Shown piece by piece: positions 31,368 through 60,928 of a stretch of 64,000 bases of DNA (position 1 is its first letter; the number at the start of each line of letters is the position of its first letter). The notes under the pieces were generated by a model, which saw only the letters and a program-made list of their open reading frames with translations, did not search any database and had not been told where the DNA came from. This DNA is from Candidatus Binatia bacterium (GTDB taxonomy: Bacteria > Desulfobacterota > Binatia > UBA9968): assembly GCA_036504975.1 (NCBI GenBank), contig DASXUF010000173.1:2745-66744 (forward strand). Direction: 5' to 3'. Position numbers and translations under genes: made by a program.

Positions 31368-31398
31368 GATAGAAACGCTGTAATCGGGCACAAATTGT

Positions 31399-34970: not shown

Positions 34971-35274
34971 AGACATAAATTTCCTCGAAAAAGCCTCGAT
35001 CCCGGCGGTTTTTTCCGCCTAAATGGGCACATTTTTTCCCTCGGTATCGGCCTTTTGGCCTCATCCGCCACTCGTGTCTAAGGTTCTGCCCTTCCTGTCC
35101 TATCGGGGGCTCGGATAGCAAGTTTTGTCAACGCTTTTGTCGTGGATTGTCCTCGGATTCCACGCCCATCTTGTCCTGACCTGAGTAGACGCCTTTAAAA
35201 ATAGCCGGTTAGAAGGCTGACCCGTCCTGGCATATGGCTTGCTCCGATGTCCAGCTTCGTGGAGGTGCGAAAAC

Positions 35275-35478
35275 ATGAACGGTGAGCAGACCGAACTCAA
35301 ATTCCTGACCCTGGCCGAGGCTGCAACGATCCTGCAGGTGTCTAAACGGACTATTCTCAGGATGATCCAAAAGAAAGATGTCCCGGCGTTGAAAGTCGGC
35401 GGTCAGTGGCGGCTGCGAGAGAGCCAGTTGAAGAAATGGGCGGAGGAAAAAGAGGGCTTACTGGCGGCTTTCGAATAG
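35275..35478 (+). CDS. helix-turn-helix DNA-binding protein, excisionase/MerR-type (TIGR01764-like)
   Basis: MNGEQTELKFLTLAEAATILQVSKRTILRMIQKKDVPALKVGGQWRLRESQLKKWAEE. ATG 35275 preceded by GGAGGTG. No integrase nearby. Confidence 0.65.
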   Translation: MNGEQTELKFLTLAEAATILQVSKRTILRMIQKKDVPALKVGGQWRLRESQLKKWAEEKEGLLAAFE

Positions 35479-35589
35479 CGCTCCGGGAAAATAGGTTCAC
35501 TCAGCAAGCAATCGTCGTTTCAAAAGCAAGTCCAATGGCGCTTCATCGAGCCGATCAGCGGCGCAACGGACAGCCGAGGAGTAATTGAC

Positions 35590-41064: not shown

Positions 41065-41108
41065 GGCGGTTGCGGCTTCGTCGTTTCGACCGCCGGCGCG
41101 CTAAATCT

Positions 41109-43796
41109 ATGCGGCAAAAACTCGTACAGTTAACGCTCGGCAACATCGCGGGTCGCCTCTGGTCGCTCCTGCCCTCGGGCGGCTCCCTGCCCGACGAGGT
41201 CTGGCGCAACCGGCACCGCTTTCTCGTCGGGCTCACGTGGTTCCATGCGGTCATCATCGCTCTTCTGGGGCTGATATTGAGCGAAAACTGGGAAGTGAGC
41301 CTGAGCGCGATTTACCATGAAGACACCCTGCTCCACGCGGTTTCCGAAGGATTGCTGGTCGGCGGGTTTGCGTTCTTGGGCAGCAGGCTCAAAGCCAGTC
41401 GCGCCTTGCGCGCCGCGCTCGTGGGCTTGGGACTGATCAGTTCCTCCGCCATTCTCGTGCATCTTTTTGGCGGCTACATCGAGCTTCATTTCCACTTCTT
41501 TGTCATGCTCACCTTTCTCGCGCTCTACCAGGATTGGTTCCCCTTCGGACTATCGATCTTGTACGTCGCGGTGCATCACGGCGTGGTGGGCGTCCTGTGG
41601 CCCACGGAAGTCTACAATCATCCCGCGGCGATCGAATCTCCCTGGACGTGGGCCGGCATCCACGCTTTCTTCGTGCTCTGGGCTTCCGTCGGAAGCGTGA
41701 TCGCCTGGCGTCTGAACGAGGCGGCGATCGCCCGCACCAAACTCATTTTGAACTCGGCCGGCGAAGGCATCTTCGGCGTCGACGCCGACGGCAAAGCTAT
41801 TTTCGTGAATCCGGCGGCGGAGAAGATGCTCGGCTATCAGATGACGGATCTGAACGGCCGGAGCATGCACGACGTTCTGCGCCATGCGCGAGCGGATGAG
41901 ACGCCATGCGCCGGTGAAGAATGCCCCGTATGCGCCGTGTTGAAGGACGCGACCGTCCACCAGGCAAGCGAGGAAGTGTTCCGGAGTAAGGACGGCACGG
42001 GCTTCCCCGTGGATTACGTGAGCACACCCATCATCGAAGGCGGGGAATTGCGCGGCGCCGTCGTGACTTTTCGAGACGTGAGCCAGCGCCAGCAAGCGGA
42101 GAGGGCGCAGAGAGAAAGCGAGCTCCGATTTCGCCAGATGGCTGAGAACATCAAGCAGGTTTTTTGGATAACCGATACGCTGACTAACGCGTGGCTCTAC
42201 GTCAGTCCCGCCTACGGTGAAATATGGGGGCGCAGCGCCGAAGCGCTCGGCCCGATGGCCCAGTCCTGGCTTGGCGCGATCCACCCGGAAGATCTCGAGC
42301 GGGTGCTCGCCGCCGTACGAACGAAGCAGGTCACGGGAAGCTACGACGAGGAGTACCGGATCGTGCGGCCCGACGGATCGATCCGTTGGATTCGCGACCG
42401 TGCCTTTCCGGTAAGAAACGACTCGGGCAGGAACTATCGCGTCGCGGGCATCGCCGAGGACATCACCGAGCGCAAGCGCGCGGAAGAGGACGCGGAGCGC
42501 AATTTGGAGCGCTTGCGGGCGCTCAGGGATATCGATCATGCCATTTCTTCGAGTCTGGATCTCCGGACGGTCCTCGCCGTGCTGATGGAGAAGATCGATC
42601 TCGTTCTGCCTTATGCCGTCGTTACCGTGAGGCTTTTCAATAAGGCGAGCGGCCTGCTCGAGCCCGTCGCCTGCCGAAACCTGGACGAAAACGAATGGAA
42701 AGAAGCTCAGTGGAGAGGCGGGCGGGGCATCAGCAACGTCGTGTTCGAGGGCAAGGCGCCGCTCATCATCCGGGACACCCTGGCCGACGCTCGAGTCGTG
42801 GACGGTGAATTTTACCGCAAGCATAGCCTGATTTCATACGTCGGGGTTCCATTGACCGTCAAAGAAGACACTCTAGGCGTGCTCGGCTTCTACACCAAAG
42901 AGGAGCACGATTTTACCGGCGAGGAAGTCGAGTTTCTCATGACGCTCGCCGGCCAGGCGGCCGTCGCGATCCATAATTCCCAGATCTACGAGGAGATGGC
43001 GCAATTGGCGGTCGACTTGGCGAGCTCCAACAAGGTGAAGGACGAATTCTTGAGCGTGATGTCGCATGAGCTGAGAACGCCGCTGAACGTGGTGATGGGC
43101 TATGCAGCGATGATCAAAGACAAGCTGCTCGGCGAGGTGAGTCCGGAGCAGAGCCATGTCCTGGATAAGTTGATGAGCCGGATGCGCTCCCAACTGGATA
43201 TGGTCAACGGCATCCTGCAGGCGACCCAGATCCAGGCGCACAATGTCACGATCGATCAAGAAGAGGTGAGCGTGGCCAATCTTTTAAACGAGCTTCAATT
43301 GGCTTACAGGGCTGCCCTGGACAAGCCGGTCAAGCTCATCTGGGACTATTCCCCGGATTTGCCTGCGATCCAGAGCGACGGCAAGAAGTTGAAGCAGATT
43401 CTGGCGAACCTGGTGGATAACGCCATCAAGTTCACCGACGAAGGCCGCGTCACCGTCTCTGCCAGAGTAAAGGAAGGCGACAAGGCTGTGGAGTTGCGGG
43501 TCGAGGACACCGGCCGCGGGATTCCGGCCGAAGCGCTGCCCATTATTTTCGAAAAATTTCGCCAGGCGGATAGCTCGGAGACGCGCCTCCACGGCGGGAT
43601 CGGTCTGGGACTCTACATCGCCAAGAACTTCGCCGAGCTTCTCGGCGGCGCGATCAAAGTCGAGACCGCGGTGGGGAAGGGGTCGGTCTTTACCGTGACG
43701 ATCCCGTGCTCGGAGCATTCGTCGAAAACATATCCTCCGGGAGACAAATCGACGGCGAGCGGTCACGCCCGGGAGTTCGGGCCGGTGTCGTTTTAG
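41109..43796 (+). CDS. membrane sensor histidine kinase: His-rich polytopic TM domain + 2 PAS (one Cys-rich) + GAF + HisKA + HATPase_c (HK2)
   Basis: Real start MRQKLVQLTL at 41109; the upstream 115 codons of the 1010-aa track ORF overlap HK1. TM region with many conserved His. PAS with PCAGEECPVC. Confidence 0.85.
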   Translation: MRQKLVQLTLGNIAGRLWSLLPSGGSLPDEVWRNRHRFLVGLTWFHAVIIALLGLILSENWEVSLSAIYHEDTLLHAVSEGLLVGGFAFLGSRLKASRALRAALVGLGLISSSAILVHLFGGYIELHFHFFVMLTFLALYQDWFPFGLSILYVAVHHGVVGVLWPTEVYNHPAAIESPWTWAGIHAFFVLWASVGSVIAWRLNEAAIARTKLILNSAGEGIFGVDADGKAIFVNPAAEKMLGYQMTDLNGRSMHDVLRHARADETPCAGEECPVCAVLKDATVHQASEEVFRSKDGTGFPVDYVSTPIIEGGELRGAVVTFRDVSQRQQAERAQRESELRFRQMAENIKQVFWITDTLTNAWLYVSPAYGEIWGRSAEALGPMAQSWLGAIHPEDLERVLAAVRTKQVTGSYDEEYRIVRPDGSIRWIRDRAFPVRNDSGRNYRVAGIAEDITERKRAEEDAERNLERLRALRDIDHAISSSLDLRTVLAVLMEKIDLVLPYAVVTVRLFNKASGLLEPVACRNLDENEWKEAQWRGGRGISNVVFEGKAPLIIRDTLADARVVDGEFYRKHSLISYVGVPLTVKEDTLGVLGFYTKEEHDFTGEEVEFLMTLAGQAAVAIHNSQIYEEMAQLAVDLASSNKVKDEFLSVMSHELRTPLNVVMGYAAMIKDKLLGEVSPEQSHVLDKLMSRMRSQLDMVNGILQATQIQAHNVTIDQEEVSVANLLNELQLAYRAALDKPVKLIWDYSPDLPAIQSDGKKLKQILANLVDNAIKFTDEGRVTVSARVKEGDKAVELRVEDTGRGIPAEALPIIFEKFRQADSSETRLHGGIGLGLYIAKNFAELLGGAIKVETAVGKGSVFTVTIPCSEHSSKTYPPGDKSTASGHAREFGPVSF

Positions 43797-43820
43797 CAAA
43801 GCGTCGCGCTGGAAAAGATT

Positions 43821-46800
43821 GTGAAGTCCAAGAAAAAAACTGCTGCGCTCGCCGAAAGAATCGCCGAAAGGAATTCCGATCTTTCCGCTCTCGCCCGAGA
43901 ACAACAGGCGCTCAACATGATCGCCCAGGCCGTCAGTCAATCGCTGCACCGCGACGAGCTGCTGGAGATCGCGCTCGACAAGGTTCTGGAGGTCACCGGC
44001 CGCGAGCGGGGAACGATCAGGCTCAAAGATTCGGTCACCGGCGACGTCAAGCTGTCGGCCCACCGCGGCTTCTCCGAAGAGGAAATAGCGGAGCTGCGTC
44101 GCAACATGCCGCATCGAATCAGCGAGCAGATTTTTGCTTCCGGCCAGCCGCTCGTCGTCAACGATCGGGCGGAGCTCCGTAACACGCAGTCTCTGTTGCC
44201 CCAAAGCCGCTCGGTCGCCTGGATCCCGATCAAGGCGCGGCAAAAAGTCGTCGGCGTGCTCGGGGTTTCCGCGGGCCGGCCCATACCATTTAGGCAACGC
44301 GAGGTCGATCTTCTTCAGGCGGTTGGCAGCGTCATCGGCGTCGCGATCGAAAATGCCCGGCTCTTCGAAGAAACCGGACGCCGGGCGCGCGAGCTGGCCG
44401 CGCTGCATGCGGTGACGGCCGCGGTCAGCGGCTCTTTCGATCTCGATCAGATTCTCCTCAAGGGTCTCGACGCGGTCCTCGAAGTAACGGAAATGGAAGT
44501 GGGTTACATCCAGTTTCTCGATGGCCACCCGCCCAGGCTTCTCCTCAAGGCGCATCGCGGCATGTCCGAATTGTTTCTCACGAGGTTCCAGGGCCGAGTT
44601 CGTCCGGGCGGCAAGACCGAGCAGATCATCGCGACGCGACAACCGCTGGTGCTGGAAAATATTCCCGCCGATCACGTGGGAAAATTCTCGGGCGAAAGAG
44701 TCACCGCGGCGGCGTGGGTGCCGATCACGTCGAAGGACAAAGTCATCGGCGTTCTCACCATCAGCACCAAAACCAGACCGACCTTTCCCCTGGCCCACCT
44801 TCCGCTGTTGGCCTCGATCGGCAATACGCTCGGGGTCGCGCTGGAGAACGCCCGGCTTTTCGAAGAAACCAAACAGCGCGCTCACGAGCAAGCGGTGCTC
44901 TCCGCGGTTGCCATGGCGATGAGCGAGTCGCTTCAGCTCGACGAGCTTCTGCGGATCGCGTTGGACCGGGTGCTCGAGGTCACCGGGAGGGAGCAAGGAT
45001 ATATACGGCTAAAAGATCCCGTCACCGGCAACCTAACGCTCGCCGCCCACCGCGGCGTTTCGGAAAATTATCTCCAAACGCTGCTGCATGGGCGCACGCC
45101 GGGCGGCAAGAGCGACCGCGTTTTCAAATCGGGGGAGCCGCTGGTCATCAACGATCCCGAAGGCTTTCAGCTCAAGGAACAGACCCGCCGCGAAGGAAAC
45201 CGCTCCTTCGTATGGGTTCCGTTAAAGGTGGGAGGAAAAACGGTCGGCATCGTGAACGTCTCGACGAGCCGGCCGCTTCCGTTCCAGCCGCGAGAAGTGG
45301 AGCTTTTGAAGGCGATCGGCAACGTGATCGGCGTGGCGCTGGAGAACGCGCGTCTCTTCAACGAAACCGAGCGGAGTCTGGAGCGCATCCGGGCGCTGAG
45401 AGAAATCGACCAGGCCATCACCACGAGTCTGGATCTGCGCACGATCCTGGACGTGCTGATGGAAAAAATCGATCTCGTCCTCCCGTACGCCGCGGCGACG
45501 GTGCGATTGCATAACAAGGAAAGCGGCTTCTTGGAACCCGTCGCCTGCCGAAACCTGGACGAAGAAGAATGGAAGAAAGCGCAGTGGAAAGGCGGACGGG
45601 GCATCGCCAACGTCGTTTTCGAAAAGCGGGCGCCGCTGATTATCCGCAACGCCCAGGCGGACGCGCGCGTGCTCGACGCCGCGTTTTACCGCAAGCACAG
45701 CCTGACCTCATACGTGGGAGTTCCCTTGCGGGTCAAGGACGAGGTCCTGGGGGTGCTCGGTTTCTACACCAAAGAGGAGCACGAATTCACCGGCGAGGAG
45801 GTCGAGTTCCTGATGACGCTGGCGGGGCAGGCGGCCATAGCGATCCACAAGTCCCAGCTTTACGAGGAGGCGCGTACTCGGGAAAAGGAAATGCAAGAAA
45901 CCAACCGCATGCTCTCGGCGTTGCATGCGGTGGCCGCCGCGGCGAGCCAATCGCTGGACCTCGACCGGGTCGTGCGCGCGGCGATCGAGAAAATTACCGA
46001 AATATTAGGCTTCGACGCGACGCAAATCCACGTTTACAACGGGCGCTCGGACGAGCTGGTCATGCGCGCCTACTACGAGATGGACCCGAAACTTTTCGTT
46101 TCGGTCCGAGCATTTAAGGTCGGACAAGGCATCGTCGGCAAAGTGGCCGAATCGGGCCAGCCGTTGATCTTCGAGGACGTCCTTACCGATCCGTTGTATC
46201 AAAGTCTCAGCCGCACGAAAGCGTCGTACCAGTTGGGCTATCATTTCTTTGCCGTCTTTCCGATTCGCGGCAAGCTCAGAAGCTTGGGCACGCTCGCCTG
46301 CACCGGCATCGACTCCCGGCGTTTGAGCTCCGGCGAGGTCCAACTGCTCGAGGCTATGGCGGACCAGATTGCCGTGGCGATAGAAAACACCGGGCTCTAC
46401 GAGCAGTTGACGCAGAAAGTCGACGAGCTGCAATTCAAGACCGAAGAGCTCCAGCGCGCCAACAAAGTCAAGGACGAATTCTTGAGCGTGATGTCGCACG
46501 AGCTCCGAACGCCGCTGAACGTCGTCATGGGTTATACCGCGATGATCAAGGACCAGATGGTCGGCGCGGTGAATCCGGAGCAGAGTCAAATTCTGGAGAA
46601 GCTGATGAGCCGCGTGCGCTCTCAGCTCGACATGGTCAACAGCATATTGCAGGCGACCCAGATTCAGGCGGCTACCGTCGCTCTCGAGCGCGAAGAAGTC
46701 AAGTTGAAAGATCTTCTCGACGGTCTCAAATCGGACCACAGCGCCAATTTGACCAAGCCCCTGACTCTGATCTGGGACTATCCACGGGACTTGCCCGCGA

Positions 46801-47276
46801 TCCAGAGCGACGGCAAAAAGCTGAAGCAGATTCTGGAGAACTTGATCCACAACGCCATCAAGTTCACCGACCAGGGCTGTGTGACCGTCTCGGCGAAGAT
46901 AACAGAAGGCGGTATGCGGAAAGCAGTAAGCAGCGGGCACGAAGCTGAGATTCTGCCTGCTGCCGACCGCCTGCTGGCTACGGGGAGGCGGTGGCTGGAG
47001 TTGCGGGTTGCGGACACCGGGCGCGGGATTCCGGCGCAAGCGCTGTCCATTATTTTCGAAAAATTTCGCCAGGCGGACAGCTCCGAGACCCGGCGCTACG
47101 GCGGCGTCGGCCTGGGACTTTATATCGTCAAGAACTTTACCGAACTCCTCGGCGGCGCGGTCGAGGTCGAGACCGAGGAAGGAAAGGGATCGATCTTTAC
47201 TGTGACGATTCCTTGCACGGTCTCGTCTTCGGCTGCGGAACGCCCGGAGGAATCCAAAAGGCTGAAATCCGCGTGA
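43821..47276 (+). CDS. cytoplasmic sensor histidine kinase with five tandem GAF domains + HisKA + HATPase_c (HK3)
   Basis: 1151 aa; same module grammar as HK1. H-box LSVMSHELRTPLNVVMGYTAMI. Confidence 0.85.
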   Translation: MKSKKKTAALAERIAERNSDLSALAREQQALNMIAQAVSQSLHRDELLEIALDKVLEVTGRERGTIRLKDSVTGDVKLSAHRGFSEEEIAELRRNMPHRISEQIFASGQPLVVNDRAELRNTQSLLPQSRSVAWIPIKARQKVVGVLGVSAGRPIPFRQREVDLLQAVGSVIGVAIENARLFEETGRRARELAALHAVTAAVSGSFDLDQILLKGLDAVLEVTEMEVGYIQFLDGHPPRLLLKAHRGMSELFLTRFQGRVRPGGKTEQIIATRQPLVLENIPADHVGKFSGERVTAAAWVPITSKDKVIGVLTISTKTRPTFPLAHLPLLASIGNTLGVALENARLFEETKQRAHEQAVLSAVAMAMSESLQLDELLRIALDRVLEVTGREQGYIRLKDPVTGNLTLAAHRGVSENYLQTLLHGRTPGGKSDRVFKSGEPLVINDPEGFQLKEQTRREGNRSFVWVPLKVGGKTVGIVNVSTSRPLPFQPREVELLKAIGNVIGVALENARLFNETERSLERIRALREIDQAITTSLDLRTILDVLMEKIDLVLPYAAATVRLHNKESGFLEPVACRNLDEEEWKKAQWKGGRGIANVVFEKRAPLIIRNAQADARVLDAAFYRKHSLTSYVGVPLRVKDEVLGVLGFYTKEEHEFTGEEVEFLMTLAGQAAIAIHKSQLYEEARTREKEMQETNRMLSALHAVAAAASQSLDLDRVVRAAIEKITEILGFDATQIHVYNGRSDELVMRAYYEMDPKLFVSVRAFKVGQGIVGKVAESGQPLIFEDVLTDPLYQSLSRTKASYQLGYHFFAVFPIRGKLRSLGTLACTGIDSRRLSSGEVQLLEAMADQIAVAIENTGLYEQLTQKVDELQFKTEELQRANKVKDEFLSVMSHELRTPLNVVMGYTAMIKDQMVGAVNPEQSQILEKLMSRVRSQLDMVNSILQATQIQAATVALEREEVKLKDLLDGLKSDHSANLTKPLTLIWDYPRDLPAIQSDGKKLKQILENLIHNAIKFTDQGCVTVSAKITEGGMRKAVSSGHEAEILPAADRLLATGRRWLELRVADTGRGIPAQALSIIFEKFRQADSSETRRYGGVGLGLYIVKNFTELLGGAVEVETEEGKGSIFTVTIPCTVSSSAAERPEESKRLKSA

Positions 47277-47286
47277 TGGTGGACGA

Positions 47287-49530
47287 ATGAATAGATTTTC
47301 CTTCTCGGGGCTCCGCGTCCGCTTGATCCTGCTGGTTCTTTTGGCCGTGATCCCGGCCTTGGGACTGATCTTCTACGCGGCCTCTGCGCCGGACGAGCAT
47401 AACATGGCGCACAGTCTGGTTTGGCTCATGATCGTTTTGCTGTTGACCCTGGCCGGCGCTTGGTGGGGCGGTAACTGGCTGATCGTCGGGCAATTGAAGA
47501 GATTGATGGAAGCGACTGAAAAGCTCGGCACCGGTGATCTCGACGCGCGGGTTGCCGTTTCGAACGGCGACGGCGAGCTGCAAAAACTTGCCCGAGGGTT
47601 CAATCAAATGGCCGAAGGCCTGCAACGTCGCGACGCCGAGACGAAGCTGGCGCAAAGCGAGCTCAAGCGGCTGCTGCGGCAGAGCACGGCGCTGCGCGAG
47701 ATCAACCTCGCCGTCACCTCGAGTCTGGATTTACGCGCGGTATTGGGGGTCTTGATGGAGAAAATCCAGATCCTGCTTCCTTACGCCGTGCTTCTCGTCT
47801 GGCTCAGGAACCGCGAGACCGGAGAACTGGAGCGGACGGCTTGCTGGAACATCGATGAAGCCGACTGGAAGCGGCGGAAGAACAAGGACGCGCCGCCGAT
47901 TATCAAAGCGGCGATTGAAAATCAGAGTCCGGTTTCCGTCCTCGACGTGCCCACCGATCCCCGGACCGAGAATCCGGAGTTCTACCGCCGGAACGGCGTG
48001 GTCTCCTATCTCGGAGTCCCCCTGATCGTCAAAGGCGAGGCGCTGGGGGTTTTGGCCTTTCTGACACGCGAGCGGCACGAATTCACCGCCGAGGAGGTAG
48101 AGTTCTTGTCCTCCCTGGCGGGCCAGGCGGCGGTGGCGATCCATAACTCTCAGCTTCACGAGCAGAGCAAAAGACAGGCGGTCGAGCTCGAGAAAGCGAA
48201 CAAGGATTTAAGTCGAAAGGAAGCGATCCAGGCGCTGCTCAAGGAGCTAAGCCAGGACATCGCGTCTCAGGACGTGGGAAGCTTGCTTAAAAAGCTCACC
48301 GACAAAGTGTGCGAGTTCTTCAAAGTGGACATCGCCGACGTGCGCATCATCGACAACGGCGTGCCGCGCATCCTCGGCGTCTCCGGCGTCGACGAAGAGA
48401 AGATGCGGCTCGGCAGCACCGGCAGCGGCAGAGGCGCATCGGGATGGATCGTCGCAAACCGCAGACCGCTCGCGATAGCGGACTTGACGAAAGTAAAAAA
48501 TCCTCCGATCGGCCGGACGACGCGCCGCATCGGCATCCACGGCTATCTTGCCGTGCCGTTTTTTTCCCGCAGCGGAGAAGTCCTGGGCGTTCTCCGGGCG
48601 TTGACCTACCGGCCGAGAGAGTTTCTCCAGGAGGAAATAGATCTGTTGCAGCAGATGACCAACGGCGCCGCCATCGCGTTGGAAAACGCCCGGCTTCTGG
48701 AGCAGACCCAGACCCAGGCGGCCGAGCTCAGGCAGGCGAACAAGGTCAAGAACGAGTTTCTGGGCTTCGTGTCGCACGAGCTGAGGACGCCGGTGAACGT
48801 CATCATGGGTTATGCGGCGATCCTGCAAAGCAAGATGCTGGGCGAGATCAACGCCGAGCAGGACAACGCGCTGGAAAAAATGAGCGTCAATTCGAAAGAG
48901 CTGCTGAGCATGATCGAACTGCTTTTGGAGGCGACCAAGATCGAGGCCGGCGCCGCGGCGGTGGAGATCGCGGAAGTCAATTTGTCCGATTTTCTCGAGG
49001 ATCTAAAATCCGCCTACTCCATTCCGTTGAAGAAGCAGATACGTCTGGATTGGGATTGGCCCAAGAACTTTCCCGTTATAAAAACCGACCGCGAGAAGCT
49101 GAGACACATCCTGCTGAACGTCATCGGCAACGCGGTCAAATATACCGAGCAGGGCAGCGTCGGCGTTTCGGCGCGCTATCTGGTCGAACAGGGGCGGGTC
49201 GAGTTCGAAGTCACGGACACCGGGATCGGCATTCCGAAAGAGGAGCTGCCGCGCATCTTCGAGATGTTCTCTCAAGTCCGCAGCGCCCGGTCCAAGTCTT
49301 CCGGCGGAGTGGGCCTCGGCCTTCACATCGTCAAGAAGTTTACCGAGCTGCTCGGCGGAGACATCCGCGTGACGAGCGAAGAGGGCAAAGGATCGACGTT
49401 TGCGATAAGGTTGCCCACCGGCGGCCAGGCCGGGCAGGCGCCCGACCGTCAGGACTTTCGCGCGGATGAATCTTCGGCTGCGCGAGAAAAAGAAAGCGCC
49501 GAGCGTCCGGTCCCGGCGGGGGATTCTTGA
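47287..49530 (+). CDS. membrane sensor histidine kinase: 2 TM + HAMP + 2 GAF + HisKA + HATPase_c (HK4)
   Basis: 747 aa. Two hydrophobic helices, HAMP (GDLDARVAVSNGDGELQKLARGFNQMAEGL), H-box FVSHELRTPVNVIMGYAAIL. Confidence 0.85.
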   Translation: MNRFSFSGLRVRLILLVLLAVIPALGLIFYAASAPDEHNMAHSLVWLMIVLLLTLAGAWWGGNWLIVGQLKRLMEATEKLGTGDLDARVAVSNGDGELQKLARGFNQMAEGLQRRDAETKLAQSELKRLLRQSTALREINLAVTSSLDLRAVLGVLMEKIQILLPYAVLLVWLRNRETGELERTACWNIDEADWKRRKNKDAPPIIKAAIENQSPVSVLDVPTDPRTENPEFYRRNGVVSYLGVPLIVKGEALGVLAFLTRERHEFTAEEVEFLSSLAGQAAVAIHNSQLHEQSKRQAVELEKANKDLSRKEAIQALLKELSQDIASQDVGSLLKKLTDKVCEFFKVDIADVRIIDNGVPRILGVSGVDEEKMRLGSTGSGRGASGWIVANRRPLAIADLTKVKNPPIGRTTRRIGIHGYLAVPFFSRSGEVLGVLRALTYRPREFLQEEIDLLQQMTNGAAIALENARLLEQTQTQAAELRQANKVKNEFLGFVSHELRTPVNVIMGYAAILQSKMLGEINAEQDNALEKMSVNSKELLSMIELLLEATKIEAGAAAVEIAEVNLSDFLEDLKSAYSIPLKKQIRLDWDWPKNFPVIKTDREKLRHILLNVIGNAVKYTEQGSVGVSARYLVEQGRVEFEVTDTGIGIPKEELPRIFEMFSQVRSARSKSSGGVGLGLHIVKKFTELLGGDIRVTSEEGKGSTFAIRLPTGGQAGQAPDRQDFRADESSAAREKESAERPVPAGDS

Positions 49531-49545
49531 GGGAGGCCTCAGAGT

Positions 49546-51642
49546 TTGATGGAAGTTAACGCTCTCGTTCGAATCAGTCGAGTCATGCGACGCGCTCTCG
49601 GACAGGCGCGTGCCGCGGTCGCCTACCTGATTTACGAGCACACGATTCTCCTGCTGACCGTCATGTTTTGCGCCGCAGGGGCGGCGACGCTGTGGCATTT
49701 GTCCCGCCTGTCGGCAACTCTAGTCGAGTCCGGAGCGTTACAGGGAACCGTGCTCTATTCCGGATCTCTCACCGAGCTGCGCACCTTCTATGGCTCCGAG
49801 GTCGTGGATAGGGTCAGGTCGCGCGGCATCGAGGCCACCCACGACTACGCCGGCAAACAAGGCGCAATCCCGATTCCGGCGACATTCACGATCGAGTTCG
49901 GCAAGCACATGGGCGCGATCAGCCCCGGGATGCAGATCCGCCTCTACAGCGATTATCCTTTTCCGTTCAGGAAAGACGGCGGTCCGAGAGATGGTTTCGA
50001 GCGCGACGCTCTTCTGGAGCTGAGAAAAAATCCCGGCCAACCTTATTTTCGTTTTGAAGATTTCCAGGGCAGAGCGTCCTTGCGCTATGCCACCGCGGTC
50101 CAACTGCGCGCCGGGTGCGTCTCCTGCCACAACACTCATCCCGAGAGCCCCAAGATCGATTGGCAGGTCGGCGACGTAAGAGGAGTCCAGGAGATTATTC
50201 GCCCCTTGGACAGCGCCATCGCCGAGACCCGCTCGGGCCTCCAAAGCACCTTTGTCCTTCTCGGCACGATGGGACTTTTGGGAGTGGGCGGCCTAGCCAT
50301 GGTGATCGGCAGGATGCGCCGCACCTCGGTGGAGTTGCAGCAGCGGGTCGCCGAGCGCACCGCCGCCGAGGCCCGTTTGGCGGCGTTACATGAAATCAAT
50401 CTGGCCGCGACCTCGACCCTGGATCTGCCTAACGTCTTGAGAGTGTTGTTGGAAAAAATCGGCGTCTTCCTACCCTATGCCGCGGCCACCGTCCGTTTAT
50501 TCAATGAAGCGAGCGGTCTCCTGGAGCCGATTGCCTGCCTGAACCTCGACGAAGAGGAATGGAAGGAAGAGCAATGGAAAGGCGGCCGCGGATTGCCGAA
50601 CGTGATCTTCAAAAATAGGGTGCCTTGGATGGTGCGGAATATTCAAACCGACTCGCGCGTCCAGGACCCCGATTTTTTTCGCCGGCAGGGTTTGGTTTCC
50701 TATCTGGGAGTTCCTTTGATCGTGAAAGACGAGATCTTCGGGGTCATTTCCTTTTATACGAAAAAAGAGCACGATTTCAGCGACGACGAAATCGAATTTC
50801 TCAACACGCTCGTCGGACAGGCGGCCATCGCGATCAATAATTCGCAGCTCTTCGAGCAGACCCGAAGCCAGGCGGTCGCGATGGAGAAATCAAACAAGGT
50901 CAAGGACGAATTTTTGAGCGTCATGTCGCATGAGCTGAGAACTCCGTTGAATGTGGTCATCGGCTATACCGGACTGATGAAAGAAGGAATATTGGGCGCC
51001 GTCAGCGAAGAGCAAACCAAAGCCTTGGACAAAATCGGCGATCGGGCCAAGGACCAATTGACCATGATCGACAGTATTTTGTTCGCTACTTCGGTCGAGA
51101 CCCGCGAGATCAAGGCGGAGTCCCAGGAGTTGAACCTGGCGGCGTTTCTCGACGATCTCAAGTCAAGCTATGAAGTTTCGGTGGAAACGCGAATCCGTCT
51201 GAATTGGATCTACGCGGCGGATTTGCCGGTGGTCCAGTTAGACGTGGCAAAGCTGAGACACGTCCTGCAAAATCTCATCAATAATGCACTCAAGTTCACC
51301 CGCGAGGGCGAGGTGGCGGTATCGGCGAGAATGATGGGAAACGGACAGCACGCAGGGGGCAATGGGTATCCGGCATTTATAGAATTCAAGGTGGCCGATA
51401 CCGGTATCGGCATTGCGGAGTCGCATGTGCAGGTCATCTTCGACAAGTTCCGCCAGGTGGACAGCTCCGAGACGAGACCGTACGGAGGCGTCGGCATCGG
51501 CCTTTACATCGTGAAAAAATTCACCGAGATGCTCGGCGGCACCGTCGATGTCGAGAGCAAGCCCGGCGAAGGATCGACGTTTACGGTCCGAGTGCCTTGC
51601 GCCGTCGCCAATGTTAAGGGTCAAGGCGCCGATTGGATATAA
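49546..51642 (+). CDS. sensor histidine kinase with periplasmic DUF3365 (CXXCH, putative heme-c) domain + GAF + HisKA + HATPase_c (HK5)
   Basis: 698 aa. N-terminal TM, periplasmic domain containing GCVSCHNTHPESPKIDW (CXXCH), second TM, then the conserved C-terminal GAF and kinase core. Confidence 0.85.
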   Translation: MMEVNALVRISRVMRRALGQARAAVAYLIYEHTILLLTVMFCAAGAATLWHLSRLSATLVESGALQGTVLYSGSLTELRTFYGSEVVDRVRSRGIEATHDYAGKQGAIPIPATFTIEFGKHMGAISPGMQIRLYSDYPFPFRKDGGPRDGFERDALLELRKNPGQPYFRFEDFQGRASLRYATAVQLRAGCVSCHNTHPESPKIDWQVGDVRGVQEIIRPLDSAIAETRSGLQSTFVLLGTMGLLGVGGLAMVIGRMRRTSVELQQRVAERTAAEARLAALHEINLAATSTLDLPNVLRVLLEKIGVFLPYAAATVRLFNEASGLLEPIACLNLDEEEWKEEQWKGGRGLPNVIFKNRVPWMVRNIQTDSRVQDPDFFRRQGLVSYLGVPLIVKDEIFGVISFYTKKEHDFSDDEIEFLNTLVGQAAIAINNSQLFEQTRSQAVAMEKSNKVKDEFLSVMSHELRTPLNVVIGYTGLMKEGILGAVSEEQTKALDKIGDRAKDQLTMIDSILFATSVETREIKAESQELNLAAFLDDLKSSYEVSVETRIRLNWIYAADLPVVQLDVAKLRHVLQNLINNALKFTREGEVAVSARMMGNGQHAGGNGYPAFIEFKVADTGIGIAESHVQVIFDKFRQVDSSETRPYGGVGIGLYIVKKFTEMLGGTVDVESKPGEGSTFTVRVPCAVANVKGQGADWI

Positions 51643-51838
51643 CCCGCCAAAACGTTTCCTTTTCCGCCGCTTTTTGTTTGAGGAACACAGGGACCGGCAT
51701 GCCGCCGCGATAGTTGCGGATTTGCGCAATTGAGCAAACGTGACAAAGCCGCTTTTTCTCAGGCCATCTGACCCGCCATAGGTTTTTCCGCGCGTCGGAG
51801 TAGAATTCAAATGAGACTTAGGAAAGGGGGACGAGCCC

Positions 51839-52735
51839 ATGGCGCTATCCGACGTTATTGGATGGGTTGAATACTTCATTAATTTGAGGCTTTTCGAGGT
51901 CAACAAAACAGCGATCACGCCCGCTTCGATCCTCATGTTTGTCGTCGTTATCGCGGTGTTTGGCGTGACTTCGCGTTTGCTGCAACGGCTGCTGAAGGCG
52001 CAACTTTTTTCTCACATGAGGATCGATGAGGGCATCCAGTATACTCTGATCCGCATCAGCCACTATCTCATCATGATCGTCGGCGCCGTAGTCGCCTTTC
52101 AGTTCATCGGCATCGATCTCACCGGCCTGGCGATCATTCTCGGCTTTTTATCCGTCGGCATCGGCTTTGGATTGCAGAACATCACTTCCAACTTCGTCGC
52201 CGGTCTTATTCTTCTTCTCGAGCGGCCGATCAAGGTCGGGGACAGGGTCATGGTCGGCGAGCAGGAAGGAGATGTGGTCGAAATCAAGATGCGCTCGACG
52301 ACGATTAACACCTTGAACAACGTCGCGTTGATCGTGCCGAATTCGGAGTTTGTTTCTGCGAAGCTGGAGAACTGGTCTTATGGCGACCAGAAGATCAGGC
52401 TGGACATCGACCTGGGCGTCTCGTACCGATCCGACCTGGAAACCGTTATCCGCTCTCTAAAGGAGGTGGCCGCAGAACATCCGGAGGTCCTGAAGCATCC
52501 CGCTCCCGATGTGCTGCATAGAGGATTCGGGGACTCGGCATGGAACATGCGGCTTCGGGTTTGGATCGGTCATCCGCGGCGGCATCTAGAGGTCGAATCG
52601 GATATCCATTGCGCGATTGTGCGAAAGTTCCAGCAGAACAGCGTGGAGATTCCGTTCCCCCAGCGCGACTTGCACGTGCGATCTCCTCTTCCGGTTCCCA
52701 TATCGACGGGCACTGAATTTCGACGCCCGGCTTAA
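51839..52735 (+). CDS. mechanosensitive ion channel family protein (MscS-like)
   Basis: 298 aa. TM helices and the MscS signature ...GFGLQNITSNFVAGLILLLERPIKVGDRV. Confidence 0.8.
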   Translation: MALSDVIGWVEYFINLRLFEVNKTAITPASILMFVVVIAVFGVTSRLLQRLLKAQLFSHMRIDEGIQYTLIRISHYLIMIVGAVVAFQFIGIDLTGLAIILGFLSVGIGFGLQNITSNFVAGLILLLERPIKVGDRVMVGEQEGDVVEIKMRSTTINTLNNVALIVPNSEFVSAKLENWSYGDQKIRLDIDLGVSYRSDLETVIRSLKEVAAEHPEVLKHPAPDVLHRGFGDSAWNMRLRVWIGHPRRHLEVESDIHCAIVRKFQQNSVEIPFPQRDLHVRSPLPVPISTGTEFRRPA

Positions 52736-52760
52736 TGTAGGGGGAAAGCGTAATTCCGCT

Positions 52761-53798
52761 CTAGATTTCGCTGCCGATCCCGGCTTCGCGTGCTTTGTCA
52801 TGCGCCAATCGGGCCAGAGCCATGAAGCCGACTCCCTGATCGCTGTTTTGTTTGAAGAGCGTGATCTGCTTTGCGTTTGAGCGGCCGGCGGCCTTTTGAG
52901 CCAGAAGAGAGCTTAGATCGTTGATATCTTCCCACTGAAGCAATCCTTTGCCGATCGGCTCGACAAAATCTCCCTGCTCGTCGTGAATGCCTTGCTGCCG
53001 CAAGGTCGCGATTATGACGTCGGCGCGAGTAAGAACTTTGTCGTCCAACTCCCGTCTCGGACTACTGACGAGTCCTTCCTGCAAAAGCTCCTTGTTGCTG
53101 CCAACGATCGACGTTACGTGCTGGCCTTCATCGAGCCAATCGCCGTACAGCACCGGTACGTTGCTCCCCGTGGCGCAGACGATCAAGTCGGAACCGACCG
53201 CAACATCGCGTGGATCGTCAACCGGCACGAGTTCAGCATCGACGTGCGGACGCATGAGATCGCAAAAGGTCTTGCGGTTCTCCCGGCTTCGGCTGAACAC
53301 TTTGACCTTTTGGATCGGCCGAAGTGTGCACATGACTTTTAAATGACGCCGGGCTTGGCGACCCGTGCCATAGAGGCCCAAGACCCGGCAATCTTCGCGC
53401 GCCAAATATTTCGTTCCCACCGCGCTGGTGATGGCCGTCTCGGTAGCGATATCGTTGTCGTCGAAATCGTAGAGAGGTATGCAACCGACGATGATCGTGA
53501 GAAGCGCCGCGGTCTCGCTGTCGTAAGCCATGTACACGCGCTTACCAACGGCGGCGTAGGTCTGATCCTCTTTGGTATAGCGATGACGTTCGTAGTGGAT
53601 GAACGTCCCGGCGACGCGCAGATCGACTGAGCCGCCCGAGTGGATGTTGATGCGCCGATCGCCCGCCATCATACGCTGGCGCGGCAGGCTGAATTGCGGA
53701 TGCCGTGCCTGATCGCGAAACCCATTCTCGACGGCGCTGATCGCCTCCTCGATCGAAATCAGCCCTTTCATCTCTTCCGCTTTGAGTAGTAGTGCCAT
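52761..53798 (-). CDS. ornithine cyclodeaminase / mu-crystallin family protein
   Basis: 345 aa. OCD family Rossmann core (GLYGTGRQARRHL). Call is family-level only. Confidence 0.7.
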   Translation of the reverse strand: MALLLKAEEMKGLISIEEAISAVENGFRDQARHPQFSLPRQRMMAGDRRINIHSGGSVDLRVAGTFIHYERHRYTKEDQTYAAVGKRVYMAYDSETAALLTIIVGCIPLYDFDDNDIATETAITSAVGTKYLAREDCRVLGLYGTGRQARRHLKVMCTLRPIQKVKVFSRSRENRKTFCDLMRPHVDAELVPVDDPRDVAVGSDLIVCATGSNVPVLYGDWLDEGQHVTSIVGSNKELLQEGLVSSPRRELDDKVLTRADVIIATLRQQGIHDEQGDFVEPIGKGLLQWEDINDLSSLLAQKAAGRSNAKQITLFKQNSDQGVGFMALARLAHDKAREAGIGSEI

Positions 53799-53951: not shown

Positions 53952-54353
53952 ATGCAGAACGATGAACAATCGATTCGCGAGTTAGTCGCCGAATGGCAGG
54001 AGGCCGCCGCGGCCGGGAATTTATCGAGACTTCTCGAGTTAATGGCGGATGACGTCACCTTTTACGTAGTGGGTCAGCCGCCCATGCGCGGCAAGGAGGC
54101 GTTTGCGGCGGCGTTCCGAACCGCCGTGGAGCGTGTCCGCATCGAATCGACCGCAAAAATCGAAGAGCTCCAGATCGCAGGCAACTTCGCGCATCTGGCA
54201 AATTATCTAGTGGTGACGATGACGCCGCTCCACGGCGGGTCAATCATGCGCCGGTCGGGGCACACGCTCACGATCCTGCGCAAGGAAGTCGATGGGCGTT
54301 GGATCCTATTCCGCGATGCCAACATGCTGGCGCCGGAAAAATCGAATGCGTGA
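53952..54353 (+). CDS. SgcJ/EcaC-like NTF2-fold protein (DUF4440/SnoaL-like)
   Basis: 133 aa. IRELVAEWQEAAAAGNLSRLLELMADDVTFYV is a typical NTF2-like opening. Confidence 0.55.
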   Translation: MQNDEQSIRELVAEWQEAAAAGNLSRLLELMADDVTFYVVGQPPMRGKEAFAAAFRTAVERVRIESTAKIEELQIAGNFAHLANYLVVTMTPLHGGSIMRRSGHTLTILRKEVDGRWILFRDANMLAPEKSNA

Positions 54354-54391
54354 GACCTTACTATGACCGCGACTCTCGACGTAATTCTTTC

Positions 54392-55519
54392 ATGAAGCTT
54401 TCAAGCACGGCAGCCCTGGGATTTGTCTTTTGCCTTTGGCTGACGTCGGGCCACGCCGCCGAGTCCAAAGCGGCGTGGCAAGCGGAATGGGACGCGATCG
54501 TCGGAGAGGCGGCCAAGAAGGACGGGCAGATCGCGATCTACCACACCCGCGGTCCCTTCGAAAATGTCTTCGCCGAATTCTCTAAGCGTTATCCCGCGAT
54601 CAAGGTCGTCTCGGTCTCCGGACGAGGCGGCGAGCTGATCTCACGGATCATGACCGAGAGGAGGGCCGGCAAGCAGGTGGCCGACGTTTATTTGGGCGCA
54701 ACGGGCACGCCGATGGACGTTCTCTATCCGGGCAAAGTTTTGGAGCCGGTCCCGCCGCTGATGATCTTGCCCGAGGTCAAAGACGCGTCGAACTGGTTCC
54801 GAAAACAACACCACTACGCCGATCCCGAGGGCAAATACATTTTTGTTTTCGAAGGCGTGGTGCGCTCCGACATGGCTTACAACACCAAGCTGTTAGATCC
54901 CAAGGAGGTCGGCTCTTATTGGGACTTGGTGAAGCCCAAATGGAAAGGAAAGATCGCCGCGATGGATCCCAAGCTCTCGGGCTTCCCGAGCGGACTCCTT
55001 CAGTTCGCTTACTATCATCCCGAGCTCGGCGCGAAATTTTTAAGAAAACTCTTCGGCGAAATGGATGTCACTTTGTCGCGCGACGGCCGGCAGATTGTCG
55101 ATTGGCTCGCCGTGGGGAAATTCGCCATCGCGCTGGCGCCGTCTGCCAGCGACGTTCAGGCGGGCATGAAGCAGGGCCTGCCGTTGTCGCGGTTCGAGCC
55201 GCGGGTCTTTAAAGAAGGACTCTACATGCGCGCCACCCAGGGATCGCTCAGCGTCCTCAGCCAGTCACCGCATCCGAGCGCGACGAAGCTCTTCGTCAAC
55301 TGGCTCCTCTCGAAGGAAGGGCAGACGCACTATCAGAAGCAGTTTTTGCGAATCGATCCGATCTTCACTTTGCGCGAAGACGTCCCCGCAGATCCAGCCT
55401 TCGAGTCCTACCGGCCAAAGCCAGGCGACAAATTCATGGCCGTGTATCGCCCGGAATTTAGAGACCTCGATCCGGCGCTCAGGGTGATCGACGAGGTTTT
55501 GAAGCGTGTGGAGAGATAG
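54392..55519 (+). CDS. extracellular solute-binding protein family 1 (Fe3+-type ABC SBP) with signal peptide
   Basis: Start refined to MKLSSTAALGFVFCLWLTSGHA (ATG 54392). Motifs KWKGKIAAMDP and HPSATKLFVNWLLS. Paralog of 17952-19043 and 59780-60928. Confidence 0.75.
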   Translation: MKLSSTAALGFVFCLWLTSGHAAESKAAWQAEWDAIVGEAAKKDGQIAIYHTRGPFENVFAEFSKRYPAIKVVSVSGRGGELISRIMTERRAGKQVADVYLGATGTPMDVLYPGKVLEPVPPLMILPEVKDASNWFRKQHHYADPEGKYIFVFEGVVRSDMAYNTKLLDPKEVGSYWDLVKPKWKGKIAAMDPKLSGFPSGLLQFAYYHPELGAKFLRKLFGEMDVTLSRDGRQIVDWLAVGKFAIALAPSASDVQAGMKQGLPLSRFEPRVFKEGLYMRATQGSLSVLSQSPHPSATKLFVNWLLSKEGQTHYQKQFLRIDPIFTLREDVPADPAFESYRPKPGDKFMAVYRPEFRDLDPALRVIDEVLKRVER

Positions 55520-55533: not shown

Positions 55534-56307
55534 TTACTCTGAGGCTTCAGTGAAGCTAACCGACAATTCTTTTACTCTGAAAACGGGAATAGTTGTCGGC
55601 AGTCGATACCAGCTCAAAGTTGTCTCAATCAAACGTTCTTCGCCGGGAGTTAGAACAAACTGTGTTACCCGACTCTCGTGGAGTTTCCAGCCTGATGAAT
55701 CCGATAGAAGCGCGTTTCGAGGTTGATGCCCGCTCGATGTAACAAGTTGCGTTTTCACGGCACGATCACACCCATTCTGGTAGACAGTCGCCTTCTTCAG
55801 GAGATTATTATCCGAATGTGCGTACCAAATCGTTAGGTCACGTTTGGCTTGAATACATCTTTTAGCCGTCGCCGTGGCGTTAAGAAGAGCAGGCGTATTA
55901 TGCAATCGTTCAGCTTCCCTTTCGTCCTGACGATGGATGCGTTGTCCTTGCGACACGGCTGATCTCGTATCGACCTCTGTAGCCAAATATAGTTCGTTGC
56001 CATCATATATTTGCAATAAATAGATTCCACGTTCAAGCCCTTTGAATTCGTAACGTCCATTGTGAGAAGTACTGGAATGTGCCGTAGAACCGGCAACAGC
56101 GGGTAAAGCCTGAAGTCTCACGGTTAGATTAGGACGACCACCGGGATTTTTTTCGTTGTCTATATTTCTCGCGTTGGTTTCATCCGCAACGGAGATCCTC
56201 AGCTCTTCCCCGAGATGGCGGATCTCCAGCGCGATAAAATGGGACGAGATAACCGGCAACCCTCCATCGCTTGTGAAATGGGTGAACGTGGCGAAACAGA
56301 ATGACAT
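55534..56307 (-). CDS. hypothetical protein with carboxypeptidase-regulatory-like beta-sandwich segment, in locally low-GC DNA
   Basis: 257 aa. NGRYEFKGLERGIYLLQIY resembles a CarboxypepD_reg-like fold. Region is visibly more AT-rich than the surrounding ~62% GC. Confidence 0.4.
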   Translation of the reverse strand: MSFCFATFTHFTSDGGLPVISSHFIALEIRHLGEELRISVADETNARNIDNEKNPGGRPNLTVRLQALPAVAGSTAHSSTSHNGRYEFKGLERGIYLLQIYDGNELYLATEVDTRSAVSQGQRIHRQDEREAERLHNTPALLNATATAKRCIQAKRDLTIWYAHSDNNLLKKATVYQNGCDRAVKTQLVTSSGHQPRNALLSDSSGWKLHESRVTQFVLTPGEERLIETTLSWYRLPTTIPVFRVKELSVSFTEASE

Positions 56308-59779: not shown

Positions 59780-60928
59780 ATGAAGAACGATGCCTTGTCT
59801 ATTCTAGCCCGCTGCGCCGCCATCGGACTCTTTTGTTACGGCCTTGTTCCGTTCGGAAAAGGCGTATCGCCGGCGCTCGCGGCGGAGATAAAACCGGACT
59901 GGCGCGCGGAGTGGGAGAGGACGCTGGCGGCGGCGAAGAAGGAAGGCGAGGTTTCTATATACGGACCTTCGAACCGCGACGAGCAAAACGCATTGGTCGA
60001 CGCTTTTCAAAAAGCCTACCCGAATATCAGGGTCAAGTACGTCACGGGAAGACTCAGCGAGCTGGCCAGCAGGATCATGGCGGAGCGGCGGGCGGAAAAA
60101 TTTATCGTCGACATTCTCCTCGGCTCCACCACGACCCCCAACCGGACGCTCAAGCCGGCGGGAGTTTTCCAGCCGATCCACAGCGCTCTGATCCTGCCGG
60201 AGATCTTGGACGCCTCCGCATGGTTCAAAAAGAAACTATGGTTCGGCGACAACGAGGAGCGCTTTTTGATACTCTGGCGCGGCGGTTCCTCGGGCTCTTT
60301 CATGATCAACACCAATCTGGCAAAGCGCGAAGAATTCAGCTCCTATTGGGACCTGCTGAACCCGAAGTGGAAAGGGAAGATTACGGCGCAAGACCCGCGA
60401 GTGACCGGAAGAGGCTACAGCACCTCGGTCTTTTTATACTATGCGAAGGACTACGGCCCCGACTACTTGAAGCGGCTCTTGGGTGAGATGGAAATTGTGC
60501 TCTCGCGCGACAGCCACCAGATCGTCGATTGGCTCGGTCAGGGTAAATTCGCCGTCGCTCTGTTCGTCGGGAGCCAGGGGGAAGGCGACGTCGCGATCCG
60601 ACAGGGCTTGCCGATCACTGAAATCGAGCCCACCAAGGGAAGCGGCGCGTTGGGAACGCCGCGAACCGTTACCTTTGTCAATGGCGCGCCTCATCCCAAC
60701 GCGGCCAAGATATACATCAACTGGCTCCTGTCGCGCGAGGGGCAGATCGCTTACCAGAAAGCGACCGGGACCAATTCCTTAAGAACGGATATACCCAAGA
60801 ACGACGTCAATCCCGCGGAGATGTTGCGGGATGACCGCGACTACATACCGCAGAACCTGGAGAAGTACGAAGAGGGCGCGCGGCCGGGCCTGAAGCAGGT
60901 TTTCGACGCGGTTCTGCCGCAGCGCTAA
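59780..60928 (+). CDS. extracellular solute-binding protein family 1 (Fe3+-type ABC SBP) with signal peptide
   Basis: 382 aa. Signal peptide ILARCAAIGLFCYGLVPFG. Motifs KWKGKITAQDP and HPNAAKIYINWLLS. Confidence 0.75.
   Translation: MKNDALSILARCAAIGLFCYGLVPFGKGVSPALAAEIKPDWRAEWERTLAAAKKEGEVSIYGPSNRDEQNALVDAFQKAYPNIRVKYVTGRLSELASRIMAERRAEKFIVDILLGSTTTPNRTLKPAGVFQPIHSALILPEILDASAWFKKKLWFGDNEERFLILWRGGSSGSFMINTNLAKREEFSSYWDLLNPKWKGKITAQDPRVTGRGYSTSVFLYYAKDYGPDYLKRLLGEMEIVLSRDSHQIVDWLGQGKFAVALFVGSQGEGDVAIRQGLPITEIEPTKGSGALGTPRTVTFVNGAPHPNAAKIYINWLLSREGQIAYQKATGTNSLRTDIPKNDVNPAEMLRDDRDYIPQNLEKYEEGARPGLKQVFDAVLPQR

Follow-up and report, generated by a model that had tools for sequence, protein, structure and literature searches.

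Proteins of the PF11845 family were studied in a preprint of February 2026 (Deshpande, Xing, Gumerov, Crane, Zhulin; bioRxiv 10.64898/2026.02.01.703092), which names the domain sCache_heme. In that study the CXXCH motif is 99% conserved across the family, the fold is moved from the PAS-like to the Cache class, and the motif lies on a short helix inserted between the β3 and β4 strands. The family is split there into stand-alone, redox-like proteins with Cys/His ligation of the heme and proteins that are fused to signalling modules and do not contain the Cys. Here, we describe a predicted sensor histidine kinase with this domain, HK5, encoded in a stretch of 64,000 nucleotides (the window) from a Candidatus Binatia bacterium (GenBank assembly GCA_036504975.1, contig DASXUF010000173.1, positions 2,745 to 66,744 of the forward strand).

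The signalling class is represented by the Cache_heme-HAMP receptor of Pseudomonas azotoformans, which binds nitric oxide (NO) with a koff of about 6e-4 s-1 as a mixed 5-/6-coordinate nitrosyl, autoxidises quickly and forms no stable O2 complex (bioRxiv 10.64898/2026.02.01.703092). The binding of NO to this receptor is relayed across the membrane and alters phosphorylation by the associated Ser/Thr kinase, the effect of oxidation or reduction alone on the output being much smaller (CHH study, bioRxiv 10.64898/2026.05.25.727664, May 2026). The Geobacter sensors GSU0582 and GSU0935 bind NO and also CO, the latter in the reduced state, and were proposed to be redox sensors that use a high-spin/low-spin switch involving Met60 (PMC8396549).

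The HK5 gene is complete, and its features are listed below (positions are those of the window, aa are residues of HK5).

49546..51642, + strand: HK5, complete gene of 698 aa, sensor histidine kinase of sCache_heme-TM-GAF-HisKA-HATPase_c architecture, where TM is a transmembrane segment (open reading frame (ORF) list, Pfam)
49546..49614, + strand: predicted cytoplasmic N-terminal tail, aa 1-23, Arg-rich, with 5 K/R and 1 D/E (residue counts)
49615..49701, + strand: TM1, predicted uncleaved membrane anchor, about aa 24-52, Kyte-Doolittle peak of 1.9
49702..50244, + strand: extracytoplasmic sCache_heme sensor loop, aa 53-233, 181 aa (Pfam PF11845, AlphaFold2, Foldseek)
50116..50130, + strand: CVSCH (C191, C194, H195), aa 191-195, predicted thioether attachment site of heme c with His195 as the predicted proximal iron ligand; an invariant column
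50245..50310, + strand: predicted TM2, about aa 234-255, Kyte-Doolittle peak of 2.2, followed by RMRR
50311..50418, + strand: predicted cytoplasmic linker from TM2 to GAF, aa 256-291, 36 residues, sequence RMRRTSVELQQRVAERTAAEARLAALHEINLAATST, no HAMP match, probably helical
50419..50835, + strand: GAF domain, aa 292-430 (Pfam GAF/GAF_2, 55.5 bits), with the motif ACxNLDExEWK, of a type common to all five tandem kinases of the window
50902..51096, + strand: HisKA/DHp domain, aa 453-517 (Pfam HisKA, 52.9 bits), with the phospho-acceptor His462 in SHELRTP
51241..51600, + strand: HATPase_c catalytic ATP-binding domain, aa 566-685 (Pfam PF02518, 93.3 bits)

The sensor domain is recognised by PF11845 (Tll0287-like, formerly DUF3365), which matches aa 94-220 over profile positions 18-144 of 144 with E = 2.1e-16 and a score of 61.1 bits (the curated gathering score is 24.1). 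The preliminary description of the window, made from the letters alone, had assigned the loop to the DUF3365/Tll0287-like family and had quoted a peptide with a CVSCH heme site between the two TM segments. The assignment is borne out by a score that passes the Pfam threshold, and the peptide, RAGCVSCHNTHPESPKIDWQVGDVRG, is found at aa 188-213 with CVSCH inside it. The motif is hardly a product of composition, the chance count of CxxCH expected in HK5 being 0.0006. As a degenerate DNA pattern, CxxCH shows no enrichment in the window (4 occurrences seen, 1.8 expected), and the three other matches fall in stop-to-stop ORFs of 30-71 codons that are not genes. Together with N196, the motif (CxxCHN) is invariant in 36/36 and in 72/72 homologs. 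The other invariant positions of HK5 are Y82, P109, P111, R132, S135, P138, F139, F151, A155, L159, R180, W206, G209, G213 and P220.

The residues that could coordinate heme iron from the distal side are less conserved. C191 and C194 are the only cysteines of the loop, so the axial Cys ligand of the Tll0287 type is absent from HK5. No further Cys, Met or His is invariant among the 72 relatives, the best conserved being H99 (86%), H198 (65%) and M129 (53%). Position 187 is Met in 64% of the relatives and Leu in HK5, and M122 is absent even from variants that are more than 90% identical to HK5. Judged by its sequence, HK5 is a member of the signalling class ('Cluster 2'), with TM segments, a fused output and no axial Cys; as a 698-aa kinase with no candidate axial Cys, it lies outside the Tll0287-type 'Cluster 1'.

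The cytoplasmic part marks HK5, by its predicted H-box His in DHp followed by HATPase_c, as a HisKA-type two-component sensor kinase. Its kinase core matches histidine kinases of the PDB with E-values down to 1e-36. In the Pfam scan of HK5 no HAMP, receiver or MCPsignal domain was found, and the NCBIfam scan recovered the kinase core only, with all matches, including partial ones to the NahK family, far under the cutoffs. The protein is present in NCBI as HEY3306089.1, from a Ca. Binatia metagenome-assembled genome (MAG), annotated merely as 'ATP-binding protein'. Housekeeping proteins of the window are likewise identical to entries in the series HEY3306056 to HEY3306090, on a contig of 69,768 bp. 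The gene starts with TTG at 49546, with a Shine-Dalgarno sequence, GGGAGG, 9-12 nt on the 5' side; ATG codons at 49549 and 49585 are alternative starts, and the JGI start call is Met14. The 698-aa protein recurs unchanged on two independently assembled metagenome contigs (SRR11743100, SRR11742962), and the CVSCH segment is intact in near-identical NCBI and JGI variants, among them one with numerous substitutions outside it. That a Cys or His was misread, which the preliminary description had named as a possible flaw, is therefore very unlikely.

The membrane topology was deduced from hydropathy (Kyte-Doolittle scan with a 19-residue window) combined with the logic of the domain order. Two hydrophobic segments flank the loop. 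The 15 residues past TM2 (RMRRTSVELQQRVAE) contain four Arg/Lys, and the flanks of the TM segments on the loop side have one and two. According to the positive-inside rule, Arg-rich flanks are placed in the cytoplasm. The loop is predicted to be extracytoplasmic because the GAF domain and the ATP-dependent kinase are cytoplasmic and exactly one TM helix lies in between. With Arg-rich inner flanks and the kinase beyond TM2, the motif-bearing segment is thus predicted to lie between two TM segments and outside the cytoplasm, in agreement with the preliminary description, whose interval, 49546-50300, runs from the N-terminus through TM1 and the loop into TM2, most of which it includes. Relatives with an HK5-like layout typically have the start of the sensor at residue 30-60, and in fusions with Ser/Thr kinases the sensor is located between two TM helices after the kinase.

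The AlphaFold2 model of the loop, built on an alignment of 36 sequences, has a mean pLDDT of 92.4 and a pTM of 0.86. It consists of a long N-terminal helix (2-39), which would run on from TM1, a mixed alpha/beta core and a C-terminal helix (170-181) leading into TM2. C139-x-x-C142-H143 (model numbering) lies on a short helix (137-145) between strands 124-134 and 159-168, i.e., before the last beta-strand. It is by this placement of the motif that sCache_heme is defined in bioRxiv 10.64898/2026.02.01.703092. In the Foldseek search against the PDB, the heme-c sensor domain of Geobacter GSU0935 (3B42) ranks first and that of GSU0582 (3B47) eleventh, and the remaining top matches are mostly Cache domains (WalK, DctB, KinD, CitA, DcuS, TlpA, CHASE4). 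The fold search supports the Cache fold class for the model, short of proof. The PAS-like heme-c sensor fold proposed in the preliminary description is thus retained as to the heme-c family and revised as to the fold, which is now classed as Cache (bioRxiv 10.64898/2026.02.01.703092) in agreement with Foldseek.

Relatives of the loop are numerous. A word-indexed search returned 348 proteins with up to 69% identity, an exhaustive search of 1.84 billion representatives returned 2,762 clusters at E<=1e-3, of which 778 reach E<=1e-30, and a scan of species-representative genomes gave at least 577 relatives. The best 150 representatives are all 47-76% identical to HK5 in the sensor, and PF11845 matches all 72 of the 72 full-length relatives. 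The outputs of these 72 proteins comprise 31 class III cyclases, 30 histidine kinases, 5 Ser/Thr kinases and 1 GGDEF-EAL protein; the HNOBA linker, typical of NO-regulated guanylate cyclases, is present in 16 of the 31 cyclases. Since the same domain feeds cyclases, histidine kinases and Ser/Thr kinases, sCache_heme can be regarded as a portable input module. The sCache_heme-HNOBA-cyclase proteins are mainly cyanobacterial and about 490-520 aa long (e.g. L020, L043); their wiring recalls that of NO-regulated soluble guanylate cyclase, except that the input comes from an extracytoplasmic heme c. Natural fusions of the type Ser/Thr protein kinase-TM-sCache_heme-TM were also found (L027, L030, L068 and L077 from Planctomycetota; P0015, P0037, P0056), and they represent a single-chain version of the receptor and kinase operon pair of the CHH preprint (bioRxiv 10.64898/2026.05.25.727664).

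With the observed domain identity, motif conservation, topology logic, model fold and architecture taken together, HK5 is probably an extracytoplasmic heme-c sensor kinase for a small heme ligand, most likely NO. The reading as a sensor of NO or another heme ligand is judged the best because HK5 lacks the axial Cys and is fused to GAF-HisKA-HATPase. We infer the following course of events, from the attachment of heme and the nature of its ligand to the sense in which HK5 is regulated and the partner that it addresses. HK5 would be a dimeric histidine kinase of the inner membrane. After Sec insertion, the cytochrome c maturation machinery would link heme covalently to Cys191 and Cys194, and His195 would bind the iron on the proximal side. 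Because HK5 lacks the distal Cys, which is optional in the family, and has no further invariant Cys, Met or His, we predict a sixth coordination site that is open or weakly filled and so accessible to a small ligand. The binding of the ligand, most likely NO by analogy to the signalling-type member of P. azotoformans, would alter the coordination of the heme. This change would displace the two terminal helices of the Cache module, which run into TM1 and TM2, and the displacement would be passed on by TM2 and the linker of 36 residues, with no HAMP domain, to the GAF domain and the DHp helices. Autophosphorylation at His462 would then change, and hence also phosphotransfer to a response regulator that is presumably encoded outside the window.

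The preliminary description had offered redox state, O2 or NO as the signal. In our ranking NO is the most likely of the three and O2 the least, and redox sensing is the main rival. A redox-state sensor, whose heme iron would exchange electrons with its extracytoplasmic surroundings or with periplasmic electron carriers so that a spin or ligand switch, not an external gas, is the signal, has a real but clearly smaller chance of being correct. It draws on the structural comparison, in which GSU0935 is the top match and GSU0582 is also matched; a redox role was proposed for both, their domains changing between the high-spin and low-spin states on reduction and being proposed to span different redox ranges (PMC8396549). 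However, NO moved the output of the P. azotoformans receptor far more than did a change of redox state by itself, and Met60, the distal ligand of GSU0935, has no conserved counterpart, as M122 is lost in the close variants of HK5 and M129 is kept in only 53% of relatives. H99, retained in HK5 and in 86% of relatives, could serve as a switchable sixth ligand, but the redox-type, Cys/His-ligated members are stand-alone proteins, unlike HK5. The physiology of the phylum would accommodate redox sensing: in their genome survey the Binatota are portrayed as aerobically respiring bacteria that have periplasmic methylotrophy enzymes and all of whose genomes encode both alternative complex III and complex IV (PMC8262859).

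A different heme ligand (CO, sulfide, nitrite, hydroxylamine, cyanide or similar), acting through the same heme c and transmembrane relay, is improbable. The authors of the CHH study expressly allow another heme-coordinating effector (bioRxiv 10.64898/2026.05.25.727664), and the GSU sensors bind CO too when reduced (PMC8396549). Close relatives of HK5 are frequent in nitrite oxidisers and nitrogen-cycle taxa (Nitrotoga, Nitrospirae/Nitrospirales, Nitrospina), and also in Planctomycetota and Cyanobacteria, a distribution that fits several N-oxide signals. Against this stands the fact that direct evidence for a specific alternative is lacking and that NO alone was shown to drive signalling in a member of the family. 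Heme-based O2-sensing kinases are well known. A direct O2 sensor of the FixL or DosS kind, with the heme outside the membrane, would suit a phylum described as aerobic (PMC8262859), but none of the three tested sCache_heme proteins gave a stable oxy complex, and all of them autoxidised with the release of superoxide. Because the characterised relatives autoxidise instead of binding O2, this signal is very unlikely; what holds of the preliminary proposal is the extracytoplasmic heme-c sensor, with NO favoured and O2 set aside. Scarcely credible is a chance or vestigial CxxCH in a cofactor-free Cache domain that binds a small molecule. According to bioRxiv 10.64898/2026.02.01.703092, most Cache domains take small ligands without cofactors, and no maturation genes are visible within the window, but a motif that is found without exception in the 72 relatives and is conserved to 99% in the family as a whole, with a chance expectation of 0.0006, and that is carried on a helix which is a family-specific insertion can hardly be accidental.

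Several observations weigh against HK5 as an NO-responsive heme-c sensor. The assignment of NO hinges on a single characterised relative, and H99 could coordinate the heme on the distal side, which would speak for a mechanism of redox change or ligand displacement. The Binatota survey does not report denitrification (PMC8262859), and the literature search found no characterised sCache_heme histidine kinase and no experiment on HK5. The E-values of the Foldseek matches are marginal (2e-3, with TM-scores of 0.37-0.50, and up), and the TM-scores of the top matches together are 0.3-0.6. Searches by phmmer with the loop and by hmmsearch with the 36-sequence profile gave only chance matches (E>0.5) and reached no solved heme-Cache structure, so that the tie to these structures is provided by the Pfam profile and by Foldseek. 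Among the scanned ORFs of the 64-kb window there are no genes for cytochrome c, for its maturation (Ccm/Ccs) or for NO metabolism. Receiver domains are likewise missing: five tblastn queries found none at E<0.1 in the window, and no scanned ORF has a Response_reg match in Pfam, while in the positive control the same tblastn search finds receivers in five related loci (L001, L002, L003, L005 and L012), and related loci have several of them close by. HK5 is thus an orphan kinase, an adjacent response regulator being common but not obligatory. As to maturation, alternative complex III contains c-type cytochrome subunits. Since all the surveyed Binatota genomes encode this complex (PMC8262859), a capacity for heme-c maturation is implied, indirectly, at the level of the phylum.

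The coupling of sCache_heme to GAF is rare, being found in 3 of the 72 relatives, and GAF is mentioned nowhere among the frequent partner domains of sCache_heme in the preprint 10.64898/2026.02.01.703092. Full-length sCache_heme-GAF-histidine kinase orthologs are P0175 (62% identity over 689 aa) and L001, from a Ca. Binatia MAG, and L002 (50%). P0175 has the DHp of the window, and L001 and L002 have another DHp/CA type. In L001 and L002, at about 5100-7230 (- strand), a REC-REC hybrid kinase is divergent from the sCache_heme-GAF kinase, with a further kinase downstream; kinase clustering is thus conserved in them, with partners that differ from those in the window. The GAF coupling and the layout without HAMP amount to differences in wiring within a known kind of sensor.

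Five kinases, HK5 being the last, are encoded head to tail on the same strand, at 35590-51642. The other four are the following.

35590-41064, + strand: HK1, soluble, with 9 GAF domains, 1,824 aa (Pfam, ORF coordinates)
about 41109-43796, + strand: HK2, multi-TM, with an unclassified domain of 4-5 TM, two PAS and a GAF (tblastn with the cytoplasmic part of HK5, Pfam)
43821-47276, + strand: HK3, soluble, with 5 GAF domains (Pfam, ORF coordinates)
47287-49530, + strand: HK4, with 2 TM forming a hairpin, HAMP and 2 GAF domains (Pfam, ORF coordinates)

The intergenic gaps are 10 nt between HK3 and HK4 and 15 nt between HK4 and HK5. In tblastn comparisons the cytoplasmic part of HK5 shares 52% identity with HK2 over 405 aa and 38-41% with the other three, and the GAF domain of HK5 has copies in HK1, HK3 and HK4 with 52-58% identity. 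The alignment shows a near-identical DHp helix, NKVK(D/N)EFL..(M/V)SHELRTP(L/V)NV(V/I), in HK1-HK5. The GAF-kinase chassis that the preliminary description had seen in HK5 and its four neighbours is thus indeed common to all of them. A sizeable extracytoplasmic domain is present only in HK5. The promoter and terminator scan of 34900-52900 gave 3 and 21 matches (4.8 and 20.3 in shuffled sequences) and no information on the operon boundaries.

Because the DHp helices are near-identical, the common GAF domain is distinctive and no receiver lies within the 64 kb, the five kinases might share a regulator. It is possible, if rather doubtful, that HK1-HK5 form one multi-input device, in which all of them phosphorylate one and the same unlinked regulator or control it by forming heterodimers. 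HK5 would then be its only extracytoplasmic input (heme-c, NO or redox), and HK1-HK4 would provide cytoplasmic and membrane inputs through their 9, 1, 5 and 2 GAF domains and through the two PAS domains and the unclassified membrane domain of HK2. The kinase core of HK5 would also have been homogenised with its neighbours, its sensor and GAF domain being still orthologous to those of other Binatia.

The N-terminus of HK2 (41109-41735, + strand) is a membrane domain of ~200 aa with 4-5 predicted TM segments and the His-rich segments HLFGGYIELHFHFFVML and VAVHHGV. Pfam gave nothing meaningful for this domain (the best match is IRK, E = 0.38), which may be an unclassified membrane sensor module. 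The row of nine GAF domains in HK1 is an unusually long GAF array. Long antisense ORFs, of up to 570 aa, lie over the kinase genes (41550-42824, 43284-44996, 46005-47039 and 49003-49698, all - strand) and resemble frame artefacts of GC-rich DNA. The antisense ORFs 41550-42824 and 42873-43259 (both - strand) were rejected as genes, having no Pfam match, and tblastn places the true HK2 on the plus strand.

Elsewhere in the window there are at least nine genes for periplasmic solute-binding proteins of the NMT1/THI5-like or SBP_bac type, mostly without adjoining genes for an ABC permease or ATPase.

333-1268, 1345-3519, 4110-5228, 7556-8563, 17952-19115, 19183-20193, 54299-55519, 59780-60928, 62104-63108: solute-binding protein genes

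In the region 8580-14280 an aldehyde:ferredoxin oxidoreductase of the tungsten/molybdopterin type adjoins two MoeA genes, one of them fused to PBP_like, an arrangement that resembles a cofactor-insertion cluster. Three ORFs, 27900-28988 (+ strand), 31263-32258 (+ strand) and 55534-56307 (- strand), have a markedly low third-position GC content (0.42-0.47, compared with about 0.7 in other parts) and match no Pfam family significantly; they could be of foreign origin or no true genes at all.

In general, HK5 is an additional member of a family that is already known and partly characterised, and the understanding of the family is unchanged by it. Extracytoplasmic gas or redox sensing through heme c in Cache domains has been recognised only recently, and HK5 offers a clean case, from the uncultured phylum Binatota, of a heme-c sensor joined to a GAF-kinase core without HAMP. 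It betters the annotation of the protein and is a candidate for learning how a heme-c Cache domain drives a kinase.

Among the described systems, DosS/DevS has, like HK5, a GAF domain directly N-terminal to the kinase core, and the GAF domain of HK5 is weakly similar to DevS in sequence. DosS differs in that its own GAF domain binds heme b in the cytoplasm; nothing points to heme in the GAF domain of HK5, which may be a relay or a second-input module. The H-NOX- and NosP-associated kinases (HnoK/HqsK, NahK) provide the working analogy of a heme-based NO signal that governs autophosphorylation of a histidine kinase. Their sensors, however, are cytoplasmic heme-b proteins, usually separate polypeptides, with no homology to the sensor domain of HK5, in which the heme is predicted to be c-type, extracytoplasmic and part of the kinase chain. 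Tll0287 of Thermosynechococcus (PDB 5B82) and the stand-alone sCache_heme protein of P. putida share the Pfam family and the position of CXXCH with HK5 (5B82 is not within the top 50 Foldseek matches of the loop model), but they are soluble proteins whose heme has Cys and His as axial ligands and binds NO weakly, and they are read as redox proteins, whereas HK5 is a kinase.

GSU0582 and GSU0935 (PDB 3B47 and 3B42) are, like HK5, transmembrane receptors with one c-type heme (predicted in HK5) in a Cache/PAS-like fold, and they give the best structural match to the model. They are chemoreceptors with an MCP output, only 11-15% identical and beyond the reach of sequence search, and Met60 of GSU0935 is not conserved in the HK5 subfamily. 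The P. azotoformans receptor ends in HAMP and signals via a separate Ser/Thr kinase, whereas the output of HK5 is GAF-HisKA-HATPase_c without HAMP. In both proteins a single periplasmic Cache domain lies between two TM segments, carries the CXXCH motif on a short helical insertion, lacks the axial Cys and is coupled to a signalling module in the cytoplasm.

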